A stretch of 64,000 nucleotides of DNA from the NCBI GenBank assembly GCA_034670305.1, contig JAXMNT010000009.1, positions 140,953 to 204,952 of the forward strand, given 5' to 3'. The notes below the pieces were generated by a model. That model was not told where the DNA came from and did no database searches. It saw only the letters and a program-made list of their open reading frames with translations. Below are positions 2,295-49,040 of the stretch, piece after piece. The DNA is from Deltaproteobacteria bacterium (GTDB lineage Bacteria > Myxococcota_A > Polyangia > Polyangiales > Houyiibacteriaceae). The first letter of the stretch is position 1. Each line of letters begins with the position of its first letter. Position numbers and translations under genes: made by a program.

Positions 2295-2590
2295 GCCGAC
2301 GCCGAAGCTGACGCCGACGCCGAATCCGACGCCGACGCCGAAGCCGACGCTGAAGCCGAAGCCGAAAACCGACGCCGAAGCCGATGCCGACGCCGAAGCC
2401 GATGCCGACGCCGACGCCGACGCCGAAGCCGACGCTGAAGCCGAAGCCGACGCCGAAGCCGAATCCGAAGCCGATGCCGACGCCGAAGCCGATGCCGAAG
2501 CCGAGTTCCGAGTTCCGACTTCCGACGCCGAAGCCGACTCCGGAGCCGACGCCGAAGCCGACTTCCGACTTCCGACTTCCGACTTCCGAA
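2295..2590. repeat. Intergenic low-complexity tract of GCCGAN hexamers and TTCCGAC heptamers
   Basis: Tandem gccgac/gccgaa/gccgat units followed by (ttccgac)n, between convergent genes. Confidence 0.9.
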
Positions 2591-21655: not shown

Positions 21656-23674
21656 ATGACCACCATTTCCAGAACCCGAAACTTTGGCATCGTCGCGCAC
21701 GTCGACGCTGGCAAGACCACGCTCAGCGAACGCATCTTGCGTTTCACCGGACGCATCCGTCGCACCGGTGAAGTCCACCAGGGCGACACCGTGCTCGACC
21801 ACCGTGCCGACGAACGCGACATGGGCATCACCATCACCGCCGCGACCGCGCGGTGTGCATGGCGTGACCACGTCCTCCACTTGATCGACACCCCAGGCCA
21901 CGTCGACTTCACCGTGGAAGTCTCGCGCTCTTTGCGCGTGCTCGACGGAGTCGTGGTGGTGCTCGATGGCGTTGCCGGCGTCGAACCTCAGACCGAAACC
22001 GTCTGGCGTCAGGCCGATGCGCACACGCTTCCGCGCGTGCTGTTCGTGAACAAACTCGATCGGGCCGGCGCGTCCTTCGATCGCTGCCTCGCGGCGGTGG
22101 AAGAACGTTTTGGCGTGCTCGTGGCGCCGGTCGTCGTACCGGTCGATGGCGATGCCGACTGTCTGATCGACGTCGTCTCGGCTCGGCTCCTGATCTGGGC
22201 CGACGCCGAGGGACTCGAGCTGTCCACAGGTCCGGTCCCAGAGCGCTGGCGCTCGCTTCTCGAGCAAGCGCGCGAACGACTCGTGCTTGCGTGTTCGCTC
22301 TTCGACGGGTCTCTGCTCGAAGAACTCTTGCAAGACGGTCCGCTCGGCATCGAACCGGAGCGTCTTCGGAACGCGCTTCGGCACGCCACGCTGGAGCGTC
22401 TGGTGGTCCCGGCACTCGCCGGGTCCGCCTACACCAACCGTGGCGTGCAGCCCTTGCTGGACGCGGTGGTGGATCTGCTTCCATCACCGGAAGACCGAGC
22501 GCTTCCGCTCGGCCTTCGTCCGGAGGCAGACGCACCACTGGCCGCGTTCTGTTTCAAAGTGGTGCACGACAAGTTCGGCGCACTCACCTTCGCGCGCGTC
22601 TATTCGGGCACCCTTCGAGAAGGCACCCGGGTCCGGCGCGGGCGAGACGACTCGAGCCCGCGCGTCGGGCGACTCGTGCGGGTGTTCGCAGCGGACCGTG
22701 AAGACGTGTCGCTCGCGACGGCCGGCGAGATCGTCGGCCTGCTCGGTGGTGACTTCATCACCGGCGACGTGCTCTCCGACGTCGGAAGCGACGTCGCGCT
22801 CGAACCCATTCACATTCCGGAGCCGGTCACACTGCGTGCGATCGAGCCCCAGACCCGGAAGGATCGCGACCGCCTCGGCGGTGCCCTGCGCCGGCTGCTG
22901 ATCGAAGACCCGTCTTTGCGGGTCTCGACCGACGCCGACACGGGCCAGACGCTCCTCGCGGGCATGGGGGAACTCCACCTCGACATCGCGCTCCGTCGTC
23001 TTCGCGACGACCATGGCGTGGGTGTGACCGCGGGTTCGCCTCTGGTCGCCTACCGCGAGACCATCGCGCGCAGCGCCGACCACGACGTGAAACTCAAGAA
23101 GCAGAGCGGTGGACCAGGGCAGTTCGCACACATCGTGGTGCAGGTTCGGCCCGGTGCGCCTGGGTCCGAACTCGTCTTCGCCGACCGCACTTCGGGCGGC
23201 GAAGTGCCTCGGTGTTTCGTACCCGCCATCGAGCGGGGTCTGCGCGACGGAATGACGCGCGGTCCGCTCGGCCAGCCGATCGTCGACCTCGAGGTCGATC
23301 TGGTCGGCGGTTCGTTTCACGCGAACGATTCGCACGAACGCGACTTTCAGTTGGTCGCGGCGCGTGCGGTTCGGGAAGCGTGCCGCCTCGGCGGCCCGGT
23401 GCTGCTCGAACCTTGGATGAGGCTCGAGGTCACCGTGCCCGAATCCGAACTCGGCGATGTGCTCGGAGATCTGAGCAGTCGTCGCGCCCGCATCACCGAC
23501 CTCGAGGCCGGCGTGGGCACGTCGACGGTGCGGGCGGAGGTTCCGCTCTCCCGCACGTTCGGATACGCAGCGAAGCTCGCGTCGATCTCGCATGGACGCG
23601 GCAGCTTCGTGCTCGAACCGCTGGCGTACGAACCCGTTCCGGGTGCGCTTGTGGCGGAGGCTCTGGCGGGCTGA
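21656..23674 (+). CDS. fusA: Elongation factor G paralog (EF-G2/FusA-like GTPase)
   Basis: AHVDAGKTT, DTPGHVDF, NKLD, GMGELHL, KKQSGGPGQF and LLEP motifs; not in the str operon. Confidence 0.9.
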   Translation: MTTISRTRNFGIVAHVDAGKTTLSERILRFTGRIRRTGEVHQGDTVLDHRADERDMGITITAATARCAWRDHVLHLIDTPGHVDFTVEVSRSLRVLDGVVVVLDGVAGVEPQTETVWRQADAHTLPRVLFVNKLDRAGASFDRCLAAVEERFGVLVAPVVVPVDGDADCLIDVVSARLLIWADAEGLELSTGPVPERWRSLLEQARERLVLACSLFDGSLLEELLQDGPLGIEPERLRNALRHATLERLVVPALAGSAYTNRGVQPLLDAVVDLLPSPEDRALPLGLRPEADAPLAAFCFKVVHDKFGALTFARVYSGTLREGTRVRRGRDDSSPRVGRLVRVFAADREDVSLATAGEIVGLLGGDFITGDVLSDVGSDVALEPIHIPEPVTLRAIEPQTRKDRDRLGGALRRLLIEDPSLRVSTDADTGQTLLAGMGELHLDIALRRLRDDHGVGVTAGSPLVAYRETIARSADHDVKLKKQSGGPGQFAHIVVQVRPGAPGSELVFADRTSGGEVPRCFVPAIERGLRDGMTRGPLGQPIVDLEVDLVGGSFHANDSHERDFQLVAARAVREACRLGGPVLLEPWMRLEVTVPESELGDVLGDLSSRRARITDLEAGVGTSTVRAEVPLSRTFGYAAKLASISHGRGSFVLEPLAYEPVPGALVAEALAG

Positions 23675-23764: not shown

Positions 23765-24322
23765 TCAGACCACCATGATGTCTTTCTCTTTCTTGGAGAC
23801 GAGCTCGTCGGTCCGCTCGGTGCCGGCTTTCACGACGGCTTCCATCTCCTTGCGGCCGCGATCGGCTTCGTCGGCACCGACGTCGCCGTCCTTCTCCATC
23901 GCATCGAACATGTCTTTCGCTTCGTGTCGAGCGGCGCGGATGGCGACCTTGCAGTCTTCGCCCTTCGCTTTCGCGACCTTGACCAGATCCTTGCGGCGCT
24001 CTTCGGTGAGGGCGGGCATGGGGATGCGGATGAGCTCGCCGTCGTTCGACGGGTTGAGCCCCAGCTGGGCCTTCATGATGGCCGCTTCGATCTCCTTCAT
24101 CTGAGTCCGGTCGAAGGGCTTGAGCAGGATCATGCGCGGCTCGGGTACGCTCATCGACGCGATCTGTTTGAGCGGCGTCGGCGTGCCGTAATAGTCCACG
24201 CGTACCCCGTCGAGAACGTCGGGGTTGGCGCGACCAGTGCGGATCTTCGCCAGCTCACGTTTGAGAGAATCGTGCGCCTGCTTGATGGACGCGTTCAGCT
24301 CGTTGAGGGTGTCCTTGATCAT
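23765..24322 (-). CDS. frr: Ribosome recycling factor
   Basis: IRTGRANP, DYYGTPTPL, LGLNPSNDG and LTEERRK motifs; 185 aa. Confidence 0.98.
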   Translation of the reverse strand: MIKDTLNELNASIKQAHDSLKRELAKIRTGRANPDVLDGVRVDYYGTPTPLKQIASMSVPEPRMILLKPFDRTQMKEIEAAIMKAQLGLNPSNDGELIRIPMPALTEERRKDLVKVAKAKGEDCKVAIRAARHEAKDMFDAMEKDGDVGADEADRGRKEMEAVVKAGTERTDELVSKKEKDIMVV

Positions 24323-24648: not shown

Positions 24649-25371
24649 CTAAGCCTCGTGGACCAAGGTGCCGACGTCTTCGCCGAGCACGACCCGTTTG
24701 ATGTTGCCGCGCTGATGAAGCGCGAACACCCGGATCGGGAGCTTGTTGTCACGGCAGAGCGTGACGGCCGTCGAATCCATCACCTGGACCCGGTCGACCA
24801 GGAATCGATCGTAGGCGAGGCGCCGGTACATGACCGCGTCGTCGTGTTCGACGGGGTCTTTGTCGTAGATGCCTTCGACCTTGGTGGCCTTGCAGAGACA
24901 CTCGGCGCCGATCTCCATCGCTCGGAGCGCGGCCGCGGTGTCGGTCGAGAAGAACGGGTTGCCGGTGCCCGCCACGAAGATGACGATGCGTCCCTTCTCG
25001 AGGTGCCGAATGGCTTTGCGGCGGATGTACGGCTCGGCGACTTGGCGGATTTCGAGTGCGCTCACGAGCCGCGTCTGGACCCCGAGTTTCTCGAGCGCGT
25101 CCTGGAGCGCGATGCCGTTGATGACCGTCGCGAGCATGCCCATGTGGTCGGCCGCGGTGCGGTCCATGCCCACCGCGTTGCCCTTGAGGCCGCGGAAGAT
25201 GTTTCCGCCCCCGATGACGATTCCGAGCTGGCACCCGAGCGCGTGAACTTCGCCGATCTCCGCTGCGATTTCGCGGAGGGTTTCGGGGCGAATGCCAAAC
25301 CCCCCGATTTCGCCGCAGAGGGCTTCACCGGAGAGTTTCAGCATCACGCGCTTGAGCGCCAGTTCGGCCAT
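24649..25371 (-). CDS. pyrH: UMP kinase
   Basis: [30 protein letters not shown] and VMDSTA motifs. Confidence 0.98.
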
Positions 25372-25373
25372 CC

Positions 25374-26351
25374 TCAGGCTTGCTTCAGCGTTTCGGCGAC
25401 GTCGGCCGCGAGGTCGACCTTCTTCTTCTCGATGCCCTCGCCAAGCTCGTAGCGAACGAAGCGGCGGATCGAGACCTTCTCACCGATCTTGGCGCTCAAC
25501 TCGTCGGACACGACGGCGACCGTCTTCTTGTCTTCCGACATGATGAACTCTTGGTCGAGGAGCACGACGCCCTTCTTCCACTTGGCGAGCTTGCCTTCGA
25601 TGATGCCGGCGATGGCCTTGGCGGGCTTGCTCTTGCCCGTCTCCTTGGCTTCTTCGTCGAGCTGGCCCTGGAAGATGCGCTTTTGCTTTTCGATCGCCTC
25701 GTCGGTGATCTCTTCGCCGCGCACGTACTCGGGCTTCTCGGCCGCGATGTGCATGCCGACCTCTTCGACGAACTGCTGGAACTCTTCGTTGCGTGCCACG
25801 AAGTCGGTCTGGCAGTTCACTTCGACGATCACCCCCACGCGGTTGCCCGGGTGGATGTAGGCGTGGACCCAGCCTTCGGCGGCGATGGCGCCGGCCTTCT
25901 TGGCGACCTTCGCGAGGCCCTTGGCCTGGATGAGCTCGAGCGCCGCTTCTTCGTCGCCGCCGGCCTCCTGGAGTGCCTTCTTGCAGTCCATCATGCCAGC
26001 GCCGGTGCGGTCGCGGAGCGCCTTCACCATCTTCGCGTCGATCTTGCCGGCCGGCTTCGCCGCCTTCTTGTCCGACTTCGCGCCCTTGGCGCCCTTGTCG
26101 GCGGCCCACTTGCGAACTTCCGTGCGGAACCACTCGTCCGCTTCGTCCGTCCACTTCAGCTTGTCGCGGATGTACGCCACGGTGTCTTTTTCGACGTCCG
26201 TGTAGGTGTCGCCATCCTTGACGAGCTTGAAGAGCATCGCTGCGTCGTCTTTGCTGATCCGTCCATCGCCCTTGCCGGCGACGGCCTTCTCGGCTGCGTC
26301 GATCAGCTCGCCGTCGTACTTCTTGCCTTCGATCTGCTTGTAGTAGCCCAT
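25374..26351 (-). CDS. tsf: Elongation factor Ts (short type) fused to an extra N-terminal domain
   Basis: [34 protein letters not shown] and [12 protein letters not shown] motifs; AGGA RBS before MGYYKQ; located between rpsB and pyrH. Confidence 0.93.
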
Positions 26352-26391: not shown

Positions 26392-27255
26392 CTAGCGGCG
26401 ACCGCCGCCACCGCCGCCGGGGCGACGCTTGCCACGCTGGAACTCGACGGCGACGCCGTCGGCCGAGGACGCGGGCTGACCCGAGCCGACCATCTCGCGA
26501 CGGCGCTGGTGGCCTTCGATGCATGCATCGGCGAGGCGCGACGTGACGAGCTTGATCGAGCGGATGGCGTCGTCGTTGCCCGGGATGATGAAGTCGACGA
26601 GATCCGGATCGCAGTTCGTGTCGGTGAGCGCGACGATCGGGATGTGGAGCTTGCGGCCCTCGCGGACGGCGATGTGCTCGTGGTTCGGGTCGATCACGAA
26701 GAGCGCCGACGGCAGCGCGTTCATGAGCTTGATGCCGCCGAGGAACTTGTGGAGCTTCGACTGGTCGCGGCGAAGGGAGAGGCCCTCCTTCTTCGGAAGC
26801 GAGTCGAGCGTGCCGTCCTCGTCCTGGCGCTCGAGGTCGCGCAGACGCTCGATGCCGCCCTTGACGGTGCGGAAGTTCGTCAGCGTGCCACCGAGCCAGC
26901 GGCCGGTGACGTAGAACTGGCTCGCGCGGGTCGCTTCTTCGTAGACGACGTCGGCGGCCTGGCGCTTGGTGCCGACGAAGAGCACGTGGCCACCGCGGGC
27001 GACCGCGTCCGACACGAACTGGAACGCCTTCTTGAAGAGCTGGGCGGTCTGGTCGAGGTCGATGATGTGGATGCCGCTCCGCGCGCCGTAGATGTACGGG
27101 CGCATCTTCGGGTTCCAGCGCTTGGTCTGGTGGCCGAAGTGCACGCCGGCGTCGATGAGGGGCTTGAGGCCGATGGGCAGGTCGCCCGAGGCGACGTCGG
27201 GGCTGCCGAGCGCCGCAAGTTCGGGCGCTTCCTGGATATCGTGGGTCTGGGTCAT
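26392..27255 (-). CDS. rpsB: 30S ribosomal protein S2
   Basis: [32 protein letters not shown] and PGNDDAIRS motifs; GGAGG RBS. Confidence 0.98.
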
Positions 27256-27539
27256 GTTTGCCTCCGGTTGTTCCGCCATCCCCTCCGCTTCGAGGACCCT
27301 TGCGGGCACCGGCTCGAGCGTTCCAAAAACGAGGAGATGTGAGTGATTTCGGCGCCCTCGGAAGGAAGGAACCGGCTCCGTGAGGAGCGGCCGCTCTTTA
27401 CCCCAGGGGGATGGGGTGGGCAAGCGGCGGCGTGCGCTCTCCAGGGTGGCCTGGCTTGGGGCGTCGGGTCGTCGGGCTGGGTCCCCCGCCGAACACGGGG
27501 TTGCTGGCGCCGACCACGGGGTGGGCGTAGAGGGGGGCC

Positions 27540-32744: not shown

Positions 32745-32950
<206 letters not shown>

Positions 32951-33028
32951 TGTTGCTTACGCAACCACTTCCATAAGCAACCGCCCGCTTTGTTGCCGCG
33001 CCGGCGCCGCGGACGCTACGCAGGAACC

Positions 33029-34029: not shown

Positions 34030-34350
34030 TCGTCTGTCGCTGTGGCTGGTTCTGTCGCTGTCGCTGGTTCTGTCGCTGTCGCTGGTTCTGTCGCTGTCGC
34101 TGTCGCTGGTTCTGTCGCTGTCGCTGTGGCTGGTTCTGTCGCTGTCGCTGTTGTCCCCTGAAGCCGAAACCGATCGCCGAGGCCGAATCCGATCCCCGAC
34201 GCCCCGATCCGAGAGTCCGGGCCGAAGCCGAAGCCGATGCCGAAGCCGACGCCCGACGCCGAAGCCGATGCCGAAGCCGAAGCCGAAGCCGATGCCGATG
34301 CCGAGGCCGATGCCGATGCCGATGCCGATGCCGATGCCGATGCCGAGGCC
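34030..34350. repeat. Intergenic hexamer tracts (TGTCGC/TGGTTC, then GCCGAN)
   Basis: Directly visible tandem hexamers between convergent genes. Confidence 0.9.
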
Positions 34351-34452
34351 GACTCCCGCAGCTTCCGCGCCCCTTCCCGGTTGGCTGGCCCGTGGGTTGT
34401 TCGACCGTAGCGGTCTGGCGCCGCGTAAAGGAGGCCTTTCGCTTCCAAGCCC

Positions 34453-48619: not shown

Positions 48620-49040
48620 GCGCAGCGGTAGCGGTAGCGGTAGCGGTAGCGGCCAGCGGTAGCTGTAGCTGTAGCTGTAGCGGTAGCGGTAGCGGTAGCT
48701 GTAGCTGTAGCTGTAGCTGCAGCTGTAGCTGTAGCTGTAGCTGATTCTGATTCTGCTTCTGCTTCTGCTTCTGCTTCTGCTTCTGCTGCTGATTCTGCTT
48801 CTGCTGCTGATTCTGCTTCTGCTGCTGCTTCTGCTGCTGATTCTGCTTCTGCTGCTGCTTCTGCTTCTGCTTCTGCTTCTGCTTCTGCTTCTGCTTCTGC
48901 TTCTGCTGCTGATTCTGCTGCTGATTCTGCTGCTGATTCTGCTGCTGATTCTGCTGCTGATTCCGAAACACGCATCCCGATCCCGATCCGATCCCGAAAC
49001 CGACGCTGATTCCGACGCCGACGCCGAAGCCGATCCCGAC
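48620..49040. repeat. Compound intergenic microsatellite-like tract
   Basis: (TAGCGG/TAGCTG)n, (TTCTGC)n and (CTGCTGCTGATT)n, then GCCGAN units, between convergent genes. Confidence 0.92.

Follow-up and report, generated by a model that had tools for sequence, protein, structure and literature searches.

Few components of bacterial translation are as uniform as EF-Ts. The closest described fusions of EF-Ts to an unrelated module come from chloroplasts. The chloroplast PETs/EMB2726 polyproteins carry PSRP-7 S1 domains ahead of EF-Ts in a single ORF, and the Chlamydomonas PETs protein is processed into two proteins (PMC8343077). A full-text literature search recovered no bacterial EF-Ts existing solely as a fusion to an unrelated domain, and chloroplast PETs was the only case found. 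Here, we analysed such a gene in a stretch of 64,000 nucleotides (the window) on contig JAXMNT010000009.1 of a Deltaproteobacteria bacterium (assembly GCA_034670305.1). It resembles PETs in that EF-Ts and an unrelated N-terminal module share one ORF. In PETs, the N-terminal part is made up of S1 RNA-binding domains and ends up as a ribosomal protein (PMC8343077), whereas the fusion in the window is bacterial and begins with an orphan domain. No S1 family matched the fusion protein (Pfam, E ≤ 10).

The gene is a single 325-aa ORF on the minus strand (26351..25374; ATG at 26351, TGA at 25376-25374, by ORF list and translation). The encoded protein starts with an N-terminal domain of 86 aa, which a Lys/Ala/Gly linker of 17 aa joins to a complete EF-Ts of the short form (Table 1). 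A previous sequence-only reading had placed tsf in the order rpsB-tsf-pyrH-frr, and the neighbouring families are indeed matched by TIGR01011, TIGR02075, and TIGR00496. It had also described an unrelated domain opening at ATG 26351, followed by a Lys/Ala linker and by EF-Ts from about residue 104. Both descriptions hold: the domain spans residues 1-86 and begins with the residues quoted there, the linker covers residues 87-103, and the EF-Ts match begins at residue 103-104. The rpsB stop and the fusion ATG are 40 nt apart. The N-terminal domain is acidic (net charge -3, pI 5.0) and the linker is basic (net charge +5).

Table 1. Features of the tsf fusion locus in the window (positions of the 64,000-nt stretch).
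Feature	Position	Strand	Evidence or remark
Shine-Dalgarno-like AGGAAA	26356..26361	-	5-10 nt 5' of fusion ATG; upstream sequence ...CTCAGGAAACACG then ATG
N-terminal orphan domain, residues 1-86	26094..26351	-	translation, homologue family, AF2, charge
Lys/Ala/Gly linker, residues 87-103	26043..26093	-	low pLDDT, in-frame indels, charge
Short-form EF-Ts core, residues 104-325	25377..26042	-	TIGR00116, PF00889, motifs
TGA stop of fusion gene	25374..25376	-	pyrH ATG 2 nt further on
rpsB (30S protein S2), upstream	26392..27279	-	TIGR01011 329.8 bits; start 27279 chosen
pyrH (UMP kinase), downstream	24649..25371	-	TIGR02075 309.1 bits
frr (ribosome recycling factor)	23765..24322	-	TIGR00496 193 bits

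The EF-Ts part was identified by TIGR00116 (202.9 bits, 6.2e-60, cut-off 104.05), which aligned protein residues 103-198 to profile positions 3-96, and by PF00889 (103 bits, cut-off 27). The Pfam UBA and EF-Ts_N models gave sub-threshold matches only. The motifs TGAG and TDFV are both readable in the translation; we take the former to mark the UBA-like N-terminal subdomain (about residues 105-145) and the latter to be a core motif. Like a canonical short-form EF-Ts (about 220 aa), residues 104-325 match the whole model, carry TGAG and TDFV, lie in the order rpsB-tsf-pyrH-frr, and are encoded in single copy. Unlike it, the fusion has 103 extra N-terminal residues and lacks the normal start codon and Shine-Dalgarno (SD) sequence.

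The absence of the usual EF-Ts start, claimed earlier, was confirmed: no ATG, GTG, or TTG stands at that place in the window. A start codon lies 7-10 codons 5' of the [VIL]KxLR motif in 27 of 30 tsf loci of relatives and is missing in the 3 fused loci. The internal start at MVKALR named in the earlier reading stands insofar as an in-frame ATG-GTG pair is present, with the correction that the internal Met is residue 108. No in-frame start other than ATG108 and GTG109 lies inside the gene near the core, and neither of these two is accompanied by an SD-like sequence. As an internal start, the fused genome G012 has a GTG only; in the fused genome G023, no in-frame start codon occurs anywhere from the fusion start to the [VIL]KxLR motif. 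With the canonical tsf start and SD sequence lost, EF-Ts now depends on the start of the fusion. A longer ORF from 26528 was rejected as it begins within rpsB in another frame, and the stand-alone homologues described below all start at the Met of 26351. GC3 amounts to 0.86 for the N-terminal domain, 1.0 for the linker, and 0.90 for EF-Ts; this is on par with the neighbouring genes (0.84-0.92), indicating that the extra part is native coding sequence. At the level of the gene, these data establish that one polypeptide would be made from ATG 26351.

The same architecture is found in G012 and G023, two genomes of the host's family (loci L014 and L009), as well as in the metagenome proteins P0123 and P0126, the former with a 5-residue linker insertion (SDKKS/DKKSD). 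Contigs from runs X6 and X7 span both domain borders, and run X5 spans the linker. These contigs, from two further studies, differ by in-frame linker indels only (-9, +12, and +12 nt). This DNA is known from marine habitats and from plastic surfaces. Relatives and reads had been proposed as the test for an assembly error. Since the junction recurs in frame in two genomes, two metagenome proteins, and independent contigs, the fusion is not such an error. The fusion gene is the organism's only EF-Ts gene, with exactly one tsf match each in the window's genome (G000), G012, and G023. Among the genomes searched, the closest EF-Ts core is that of G017 (78% identity), which is unfused; the unfused cores of sister genera are 75-78% identical to that of the window.

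The N-terminal domain belongs to a large family with the motif YYKxIxGKxYD ... GDGR[IL]S ... YTDxEK ... WFRxExRKW. The family comprises at least 1010 clusters (E ≤ 0.001; 50% identity clusters), and the 120 listed homologues are 67-80% identical to the query over 100% of its length. Small stand-alone homologues, which the earlier reading had proposed, are plentiful: of 281 candidates at E ≤ 0.01, 278 are of stand-alone size (47-151 aa). Stand-alone 86-aa hypothetical proteins contain the same domain end to end (65-79% identity), with the same first Met and the same 38 invariant positions, whereas the window's copy has a linker into EF-Ts in place of the stop codon. The invariant set was defined as the 38 positions constant in 21 stand-alone members. 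Of these, the window's copy keeps 38/38, G012 35/37, G023 34/35, and P0126 35/38. Judged from this conservation, the domain is under selection in the fused copies. Profile searches returned no Pfam, NCBIfam, or PDB counterpart for the family, in agreement with the earlier designation of the domain as an orphan. PADLOC did not match the domain, and neither did PHROGs match a single domain; a tandem family member matched phrog_5370, of unknown function (1.5e-5). A literature search for the GDGRIS motif gave no related description.

The stand-alone form occurs in many Bacteroidota and some Myxococcota. Its carriers include Brumimicrobium, Cryomorpha, Crocinitomix, Raineya, and Polyangiaceae MAGs, and some of them, such as Brumimicrobium and Cryomorpha, are culturable. 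Tandem copies, membrane anchors, and dinoflagellate proteins also contain the domain, and language-model neighbours indicate giant-virus members. Of the best 150 of the 1010 clusters, 53 contain 2-5 copies of the domain, 46 show it ahead of a predicted transmembrane (TM) segment, 16 show it behind a TM segment, and 12 are proteins of ≤125 aa with this domain alone. Pfam partners in 135 of these best 150 clusters include OmpA in 21 and LysM in 19. Other partners in some members are HC2 or linker-histone, PHD, Tudor-knot, PADR1, and BRCT domains, and in a Bacteroidales MAG the domain is fused to pyruvate:ferredoxin oxidoreductase (PFOR). The domain stands at the N-terminus, without a signal peptide, before a basic stretch and a TM segment, which places it in the cytoplasm. 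Of 69 N-terminal single-domain fusions, 55 have a basic stretch after the domain, and 48 reach a charge of ≥+3 in 25 residues. No tsf was found within about 6 kb of the stand-alone genes at 80 loci. These genes have no conserved neighbour: the top flanking family occurs at 16 of the 80 loci, and the top immediate neighbour accounts for 6 of 65 called domain genes.

The N-terminal domain was predicted to consist of a beta-hairpin and four helices. AF2 modelled it with a pLDDT of 89.8 when an alignment was supplied. For the full protein without an alignment, pLDDT was 78-91 in the N-terminal domain, under 50 at residues 90-101, and 54.8 on average in the EF-Ts part. According to these models, the domain folds autonomously and is joined by a flexible linker. 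The models contain two helix-loop-helix units, and a short bridge links residue 32 to residue 67. A two-copy complex prediction of the domain scored 0.17 against a mark of 0.42. Foldseek gave a best E of 1.9 against PDB and no match below E 1 against PDB and BFVD, and sequence profiles of PDB gave nothing below E 0.3. In VIA-align over 48,161 chains, the 50 best hits had Z of 5.0-7.3, the best (7.3) being generic helical repeats within the noise of helical models. Thus, as far as the models can tell, no solved fold is clearly similar to the N-terminal domain.

The window's genome contains 5 copies of the domain, carried by EF-Ts, by a stand-alone protein, ahead of a FadB-like 3HCDH/ECH enzyme, in TopA (embedded in a Lys-rich C-terminal tail), and ahead of a ~190-aa domain of no known identity. 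Protein similarity is 0.80-0.88 between copies within one genome and 0.67-0.68 between tsf-fused copies of different genera; branch supports of the copy tree are 84-97 on 86 columns. We considered recent gene conversion among the paralogous copies and found it unsupported: copies from the same genome show no excess identity at synonymous codons. The higher protein similarity within a genome fits a shared, lineage-specific constraint on the sequence, and independent lineage-specific duplications could equally explain it. The fusion had been suggested to link EF-Tu recycling to Ca2+ or to a partner protein. A role specific to EF-Tu is doubtful, because the same genome attaches the domain to TopA, a FadB-like enzyme, and the ~190-aa domain. 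The presence of the domain on EF-Ts and on other housekeeping enzymes in one genome points to an undescribed general-purpose protein module rather than a calcium switch.

We take the fusion, as had been suggested, to be an informative clue to the orphan domain. The reading that we favour, tentatively and with somewhat less than even confidence, is that a cytoplasmic adaptor or ligand-binding module is tethered to an ordinary EF-Ts core. The EF-Ts part, judged by its sequence, would carry out normal GDP/GTP exchange on EF-Tu. The N-terminal domain would be no canonical Ca2+ EF-hand but one of many portable modules that form a large family, very conserved and so far undescribed. It may serve as a generic adaptor that recognises a single conserved partner or ligand in the cell, which could be further copies of the domain. 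The host lineage would have hung this module on several abundant housekeeping proteins (EF-Ts, TopA, and the FadB-like enzyme), and other taxa would display it on the cytoplasmic side of membrane anchors carrying OmpA or LysM domains. The fusion may then tether or co-regulate EF-Ts via the shared partner, leaving its catalytic mechanism unchanged. Several observations weigh against the adaptor reading. The fusion partners have no obvious common pathway, and a tolerated fusion need not be useful. The neighbourhoods of the 80 stand-alone loci are uninformative, and the closest core (G017) is unfused.

A bolder version, which we regard as unlikely, is that the domain is an undescribed ancient docking tag and that, within a cell, its copies all recognise a single common partner or associate with each other. 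If so, EF-Ts, TopA, and the FadB-like enzyme, and elsewhere PFOR and cell-wall-anchored membrane proteins, would be gathered in one place or under one signal by a module that Bacteroidota and Myxococcota share with dinoflagellates and giant viruses. On this view, the EF-Ts fusion offers the first handle on the common partner. Of greater importance than the fusion is the domain, which is large as a family, 67-80% identical between Bacteroidota and Myxococcota, and without a Pfam, NCBIfam, or PDB counterpart. Its natural fusions (EF-Ts, TopA, FadB-like, PFOR, TM-OmpA, TM-LysM, and tandem arrays) are a starting point for finding the binding partner.

The sequence-only reading had proposed an EF-hand and Ca2+ binding, and the corresponding alternative is that the domain is a degenerate EF-hand-like Ca2+/Mg2+ sensor modulating EF-Ts and the other fused enzymes. 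In the canonical EF-hand loop of 12 residues, positions 1, 3, 5, and 12 provide oxygen ligands, position 6 is Gly, and position 8 is hydrophobic. In the numbering that we presume, the conserved GxGDGR[IL]SxxD keeps loop positions 5 (D29), 6 (G30), 8 (I/L32), 9 (S33), and 12 (D36). D29, D36, D46, and E54 are invariant or nearly so in both alignments; conservation of D52 is confined to the close alignment. The domain thus resembles an EF-hand pair (PF00036/PF13499) in its half-loop DG-x-[IL]-[ST]-x-x-[DE], its two helix-loop-helix units, and the inter-loop bridge 32-67 of the AF2 models, which is as in paired EF loops. EF-hand proteins also came top in the PDB profile searches, yet with non-significant E values of 0.53 and 0.32. 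However, the domain differs from such a pair in its ligands: Asp or Glu stands at position 1 in 3 of 21 members and at position 3 in 1 of 21, and the second loop, of about 4 residues (K-W-T), lacks an acidic ligand. Five EF-hand Pfam models (PF00036, PF13202, PF13405, PF13499, and PF13833) matched neither of 2 query forms and none of 22 diverse members at E ≤ 10, in a search where the HMMER filters discard most matches with E above about 0.1. Nor was any EF-hand chain among the 50 best of the 48,161 chains compared by VIA-align, and Foldseek gave E ≥ 1.9 in PDB. With half of the loop motif conserved, EF-hand profiles unmatched, and no significant sequence or fold match, the EF-hand/Ca2+ claim was not sustained and is weak. 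The models leave room for a degenerate EF-hand-like metal site, and a metal sensor of this kind seems improbable to us.

An equally improbable explanation holds that the acidic domain and its basic linker form a tether to the ribosome or to nucleic acids, keeping EF-Ts near translating ribosomes and TopA on DNA. The basic stretch found after the domain in 55 of 69 fusions, the Lys-rich tails around the TopA copy, and the members with HC2 or linker-histone, PHD, Tudor-knot, PADR1, and BRCT domains favour it. It also resembles chloroplast PETs, a precedent for EF-Ts fused to the S1 RNA-binding domains of a ribosomal protein (PMC8343077). On the other side, the domain is itself acidic, none of the nucleic-acid-binding families matched it, and a basic tail is absent from the stand-alone 86-aa proteins. 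Basic residues are expected anyway before the TM segment of the 46 membrane forms, and the FadB-like and PFOR fusions are unconnected to nucleic acids.

The fusion could also be functionally neutral or serve only for co-expression, or it could be a polyprotein. A stand-alone gene would have inserted between rpsB and tsf and lost its stop, and the two parts would function separately, perhaps once the linker has been cut; we give this little credence, on a level with the two preceding explanations. The linker is flexible and variable in length, the EF-Ts cores of sister genera are unfused despite their 75-78% identity, the fused partners are heterogeneous, and the Chlamydomonas PETs protein is split in two (PMC8343077). 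Against this, the domain has diverged to 67-77% identity and yet retains 34-38 of 35-38 scorable invariant residues, the canonical tsf start and SD sequence are gone, the frame is preserved through three independent linker indels, and several such fusions arose in the same genomes. An artefact, either mis-assembly or sequencing error or EF-Ts made from ATG108/GTG109, has in its favour the in-frame ATG-GTG pair just 5' of VKALR in the window, but is very improbable and largely refuted by the recurrence in two other genomes, two metagenome proteins, and contigs of two other studies, by an internal start that lacks an SD-like sequence and is not conserved (GTG only in G012, none in G023), and by the uniform GC3 along the gene.

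Relationships to other small helical families were also considered. TerB (PF05099) was the nearest named neighbour in language-model space (0.75-0.77); it was rejected, with no Pfam match and an hhalign probability of 0.4% (E 0.15, 15 columns) against 11 TerB domains. SHOCT-like (PF22746) was rejected as sub-threshold: it matched 7 of 22 members (best E 4.1e-4), and the scored matches reached 18.8-19.4 bits (cut-off 27) over residues 31-48 only. Like TerB and SHOCT-like domains, the N-terminal domain has a short DG-x-L-S-x-x-E motif at a helix start and is promiscuous, small, and helical. Period-6 repeats beside three paralog loci, considered as a trait linked to the domain, proved to be a genome-wide feature.

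The tsf gene of the window encodes one polypeptide, the sole EF-Ts of the organism, in which an extra N-terminal domain (the N-domain) and a linker precede an intact core. The sequence-only reading had described it as such a fusion, and the 325-aa frame, the EF-Ts profile matches, and the gene neighbours (rpsB, pyrH, and frr) bear this out. The EF-Ts part spans the whole model, scoring 202.9 bits with TIGR00116 (cut-off 104.05) and 103 bits with PF00889 (cut-off 27). Judged by its sequence, the core is an ordinary EF-Ts family member, and it would be expected to work normally. AGGAAA lies 5-10 nt 5' of the ATG, and GC3 (N-domain 0.86, linker 1.0, EF-Ts 0.90) is comparable to that of neighbouring genes. 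A longer ORF from 26528 was rejected: it starts within rpsB in another frame, and the Met of 26351 is the start of all stand-alone homologues. In rpsB itself, with 27279 taken as its start, the TIGR01011 match covers residues 36-258, preceded by about 35 residues and followed by a Gly/Arg-rich tail; a "sunset domain variant" model scored far under its cut-off.

Features of the window and of other loci carrying the domain in the same genome (G000)
Feature	Location	Strand	Basis or identifier
tsf fusion ORF, 325 aa	window, ATG 26351 to TGA 25376-25374	minus	translation
N-domain	residues 1-86 of fusion	minus	translation
Linker, Lys/Ala/Gly	residues 87-103 of fusion (window 26043-26093)	minus	translation
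EF-Ts core	from residue 103-104 of fusion	minus	TIGR00116 and PF00889 matches
rpsB, 295 aa if started at 27279	window 26392-27279	minus	TIGR01011
EF-G family gene, convergent to frr	window 21656-23674	plus	TIGR00484
Stand-alone domain gene	L003		
N-terminal domain on 889-aa 3HCDH/ECH (FadB-like) enzyme	L004:1213-3252, contig C28		P0287
Domain without beta-hairpin, within Lys-rich C-terminal tail of TopA	L005:1-1857, contig C20		
Domain ahead of ~190-aa unassigned region	L002, contig C60		P0124
Period-6 arrays, window	2295-2562, 32758-32951, 34221-34352, 48628-48955		
Period-6 arrays, paralogue loci	L003:2029-2199; L004:1274-1386; L005:2911-3185		

The fusion of the domain to EF-Ts is real. When proteins of 178-569 aa were searched by a word-based method with residues 1-95 as the query, 8 were retrieved, 2 of them EF-Ts fusions from metagenomes: P0123, whose domain is identical to that of the window and whose linker carries a 5-residue insertion, and P0126, whose domain is 77% identical and whose source contig is 180 kb long. 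The domain was present in 7 of 41 genomes surveyed (the window's own and 40 relatives), all of the window's family (6 of the 24 relatives there), and in 0 of the 16 relatives of other families. Two relatives, G012 and G023, each carry one copy fused to tsf in the same manner as in the window. The junction is also spanned by contigs from three sequencing runs, which belong to two studies distinct from the possible source; the contigs extend 55 nt (X6), 40 nt (X7), and 29 nt (X5) into the EF-Ts core, and their indels relative to the window (+12, -9, and +12 nt) are all in-frame and all within the linker. Together with the insertion in P0123, these show that natural populations are polymorphic for the length of the linker.

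Each fusion genome (G000, G012, and G023) has one tsf match. In 27 of 30 tsf loci of relatives, a start codon lies 7-10 codons upstream of the [VIL]KxLR motif, mostly with an SD-like sequence. None of the three fused genes has a start codon at this distance, and in G023 the stretch from the start of the fusion to the motif contains no further in-frame start of any kind. Therefore, the EF-Ts of the fusion organisms would be made only as a fusion, unless it is later cleaved. The internal Met noted in the sequence-only reading is present in frame in the window, its correct number being residue 108. A tree was built from 32 EF-Ts cores, with eight weaker tsf matches that had no locus omitted. All five fusion rows fall within one clade of 16 (support 99/96), and the tree requires two changes for the fusion state, though a single origin is also possible. 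The tsf linkers of three lineages open alike, with (K/R)GAKG, which hints at a single origin of the fusion.

The N-domain belongs to an unnamed family and is undescribed in the profile and structure libraries searched; Pfam and NCBIfam gave no match at E<=10. Small stand-alone homologues, which the sequence-only reading had mentioned, do exist: of 281 candidates 47-151 aa long, 278 matched at E<=0.01, and the listed ones (120) share 67-80% identity with the N-domain over its full length. At the level of sequence, the N-domain is the same as a protein of about 86 aa that also exists on its own and is very conserved. Among the carriers (191 confirmed stretches, 80 kept), named genomes are mostly Bacteroidota (Flavobacteriales, Cytophagales, Bacteroidales, Sphingobacteriales, and others) with some Myxococcota, and the gene context of the stand-alone genes at 80 loci was uninformative. 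When 1.84 billion representatives were searched with a profile, 1010 clusters reached E<=0.001 and 623 of them E<=1e-10. Architectures were counted in the best 150 of the 1010 with our own HMM and a crude hydropathy rule for transmembrane (TM) segments: 53 are tandems of 2-5 copies, 46 have the domain first and then a predicted TM segment, 16 have the TM segment first and the domain C-terminal, 14 have the domain ahead of another soluble part, 12 are single-domain proteins (<=125 aa), and 9 have it internal or C-terminal in a soluble protein. In the membrane forms with an N-terminal domain, a basic stretch precedes the TM segment and there is no signal peptide, so the domain is predicted to be cytoplasmic. 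Pfam was run on 135 of the 150, leaving out the 13 shortest (<=125 aa plus P0128) and the two longest. The partners were OmpA (21), LysM (19), true EF-hands (4), PHD (3), HC2 (2), and, once each, WWE, PADR1, Tudor-knot, and linker histone; no further EF-Ts fusion was found among these 135. Source names include Myxococcales, Cyclobacteriaceae, dinoflagellate transcriptomes, and a PARP-1-like eukaryotic protein, and one cluster of language-model neighbours is mostly Nucleocytoviricota. Tandem copies occur in the dinoflagellate proteins and in the PARP-1-like protein, which has PADR1 and BRCT (P0237, P0147/P0286, P0157). A tandem bacterial member matched phrog_5370.

The domain folds autonomously. 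Its AF2 model, built from 21 aligned homologues (pLDDT 89.8), shows residues 4-13 as a beta-hairpin, followed by four helices (14-24, 34-47, 52-64, and 69-85), and a bridge joins residues 32 and 67; in the full-length model, made with no alignment, the domain is again confidently folded and the linker disordered. Foldseek gave no clear likeness (best E-value 1.9 in PDB and 1.2 among the viral predicted structures of BFVD), and the top VIA-align matches over 48,161 chains (best Z 7.3) were all helical repeats of a generic kind, inside the noise range stated for the tool. The proposed EF-hand is not supported. Loop positions 5, 6, 8, 9, and 12 are kept but positions 1 and 3 are not, being D/E in 3 and 1 of 21 family members, respectively; the second loop has only about 4 residues; and EF-hand profiles matched neither the query nor any of 22 diverse family members. 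EF-hand proteins topped the PDB profile searches, yet only with E-values of 0.53 and 0.32. That the domain is a metal sensor of a degenerate EF-hand-like type is an unlikely reading. TerB is the nearest named atlas neighbour (0.75-0.77), and TerB identity was rejected by hhalign against 11 TerB domains (probability 0.4%). SHOCT-like matches were sub-threshold. The domain, EF-hands, TerB, and SHOCT-like proteins have in common a short helix-start motif, DG-x-[IL]-[ST]-x-x-[DE].

The window's genome holds five copies (tsf, stand-alone, FadB-like, TopA, and the ~190-aa-region fusion) and G012 four, tsf and FadB-like fusions among them; the FadB-like fusion with an N-terminal domain is thus found in both (L004 and L008). 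In a third relative, G006 (L011), the domain interrupts the NAD-binding Rossmann domain of a FadB-like enzyme and keeps only 21 of 29 invariant residues. The TopA comprises Topoisom_bac and four Toprim_C_rpt repeats, its domain copy sitting between long C-terminal Lys/Ala-rich tails. The ~190-aa region (...DDPRGLxIHRHKxDGRWFLTQ...) is conserved in P0124 (L002), P0125, and P0127 and matched nothing in Pfam, PADLOC, or PHROG. In a Bacteroidales MAG (L069, P0290), the domain and a Lys-rich linker precede a full pyruvate:ferredoxin oxidoreductase in one protein. A tree of 30 copies groups them by genome, not by fusion partner, with the four G012 copies together (84/90) and the G000 TopA and stand-alone copies together (97/92). 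Copies within one genome share 0.80-0.88 protein identity, against 0.67-0.68 for tsf-fused copies from different genera. Synonymous identity among within-genome copies (L001-L015) is not elevated, and all four G012 copies have L or M in place of Y60, which is invariant elsewhere. This likeness would fit duplications specific to a lineage as well as co-evolution with a common partner.

We tentatively favour the domain as an adaptor that binds a single conserved partner or ligand, which might be further copies of the domain. The reasons are its portability, cytoplasmic location, extreme conservation from end to end, and frequent repetition, and its occurrence both on membrane anchors and on abundant proteins that are unrelated to one another. 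The N-domain would add a generic property to EF-Ts. Flexible and basic, the linker also varies in length; that domain and basic linker together form a ribosome or nucleic-acid tether seems improbable. It is likewise doubtful that the fusion is neutral or processed: the domain is conserved, and the tsf fusions keep the family-invariant residues (window 38/38, G012 35/37, G023 34/35, and P0126 35/38; the near-identical P0123, 38/38, stands outside these four). An assembly artefact, which the sequence-only reading had raised, or EF-Ts made from an internal start is very improbable, since the same architecture recurs in G012, G023, P0123, and P0126 and in the junction-crossing contigs of three other runs.

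In the literature excerpts returned by full-text search, the only EF-Ts fusion described is chloroplast PETs/EMB2726, with S1 domains ahead of EF-Ts (PMC8343077). What is new here is an EF-Ts carrying an accessory module from an undescribed family.

Period-6 tandem arrays (GCCGAC, GCCGAT, and similar, 14-44 copies), which translate as DA/GI/RS-type low-complexity runs depending on frame, were considered as a mark of domain loci and rejected, being genome-wide and not domain-specific. The EF-G family gene near frr passes TIGR00484 by a narrow margin (686 bits, cut-off 659.4) and, from its sequence, may be a second, divergent EF-G paralogue.
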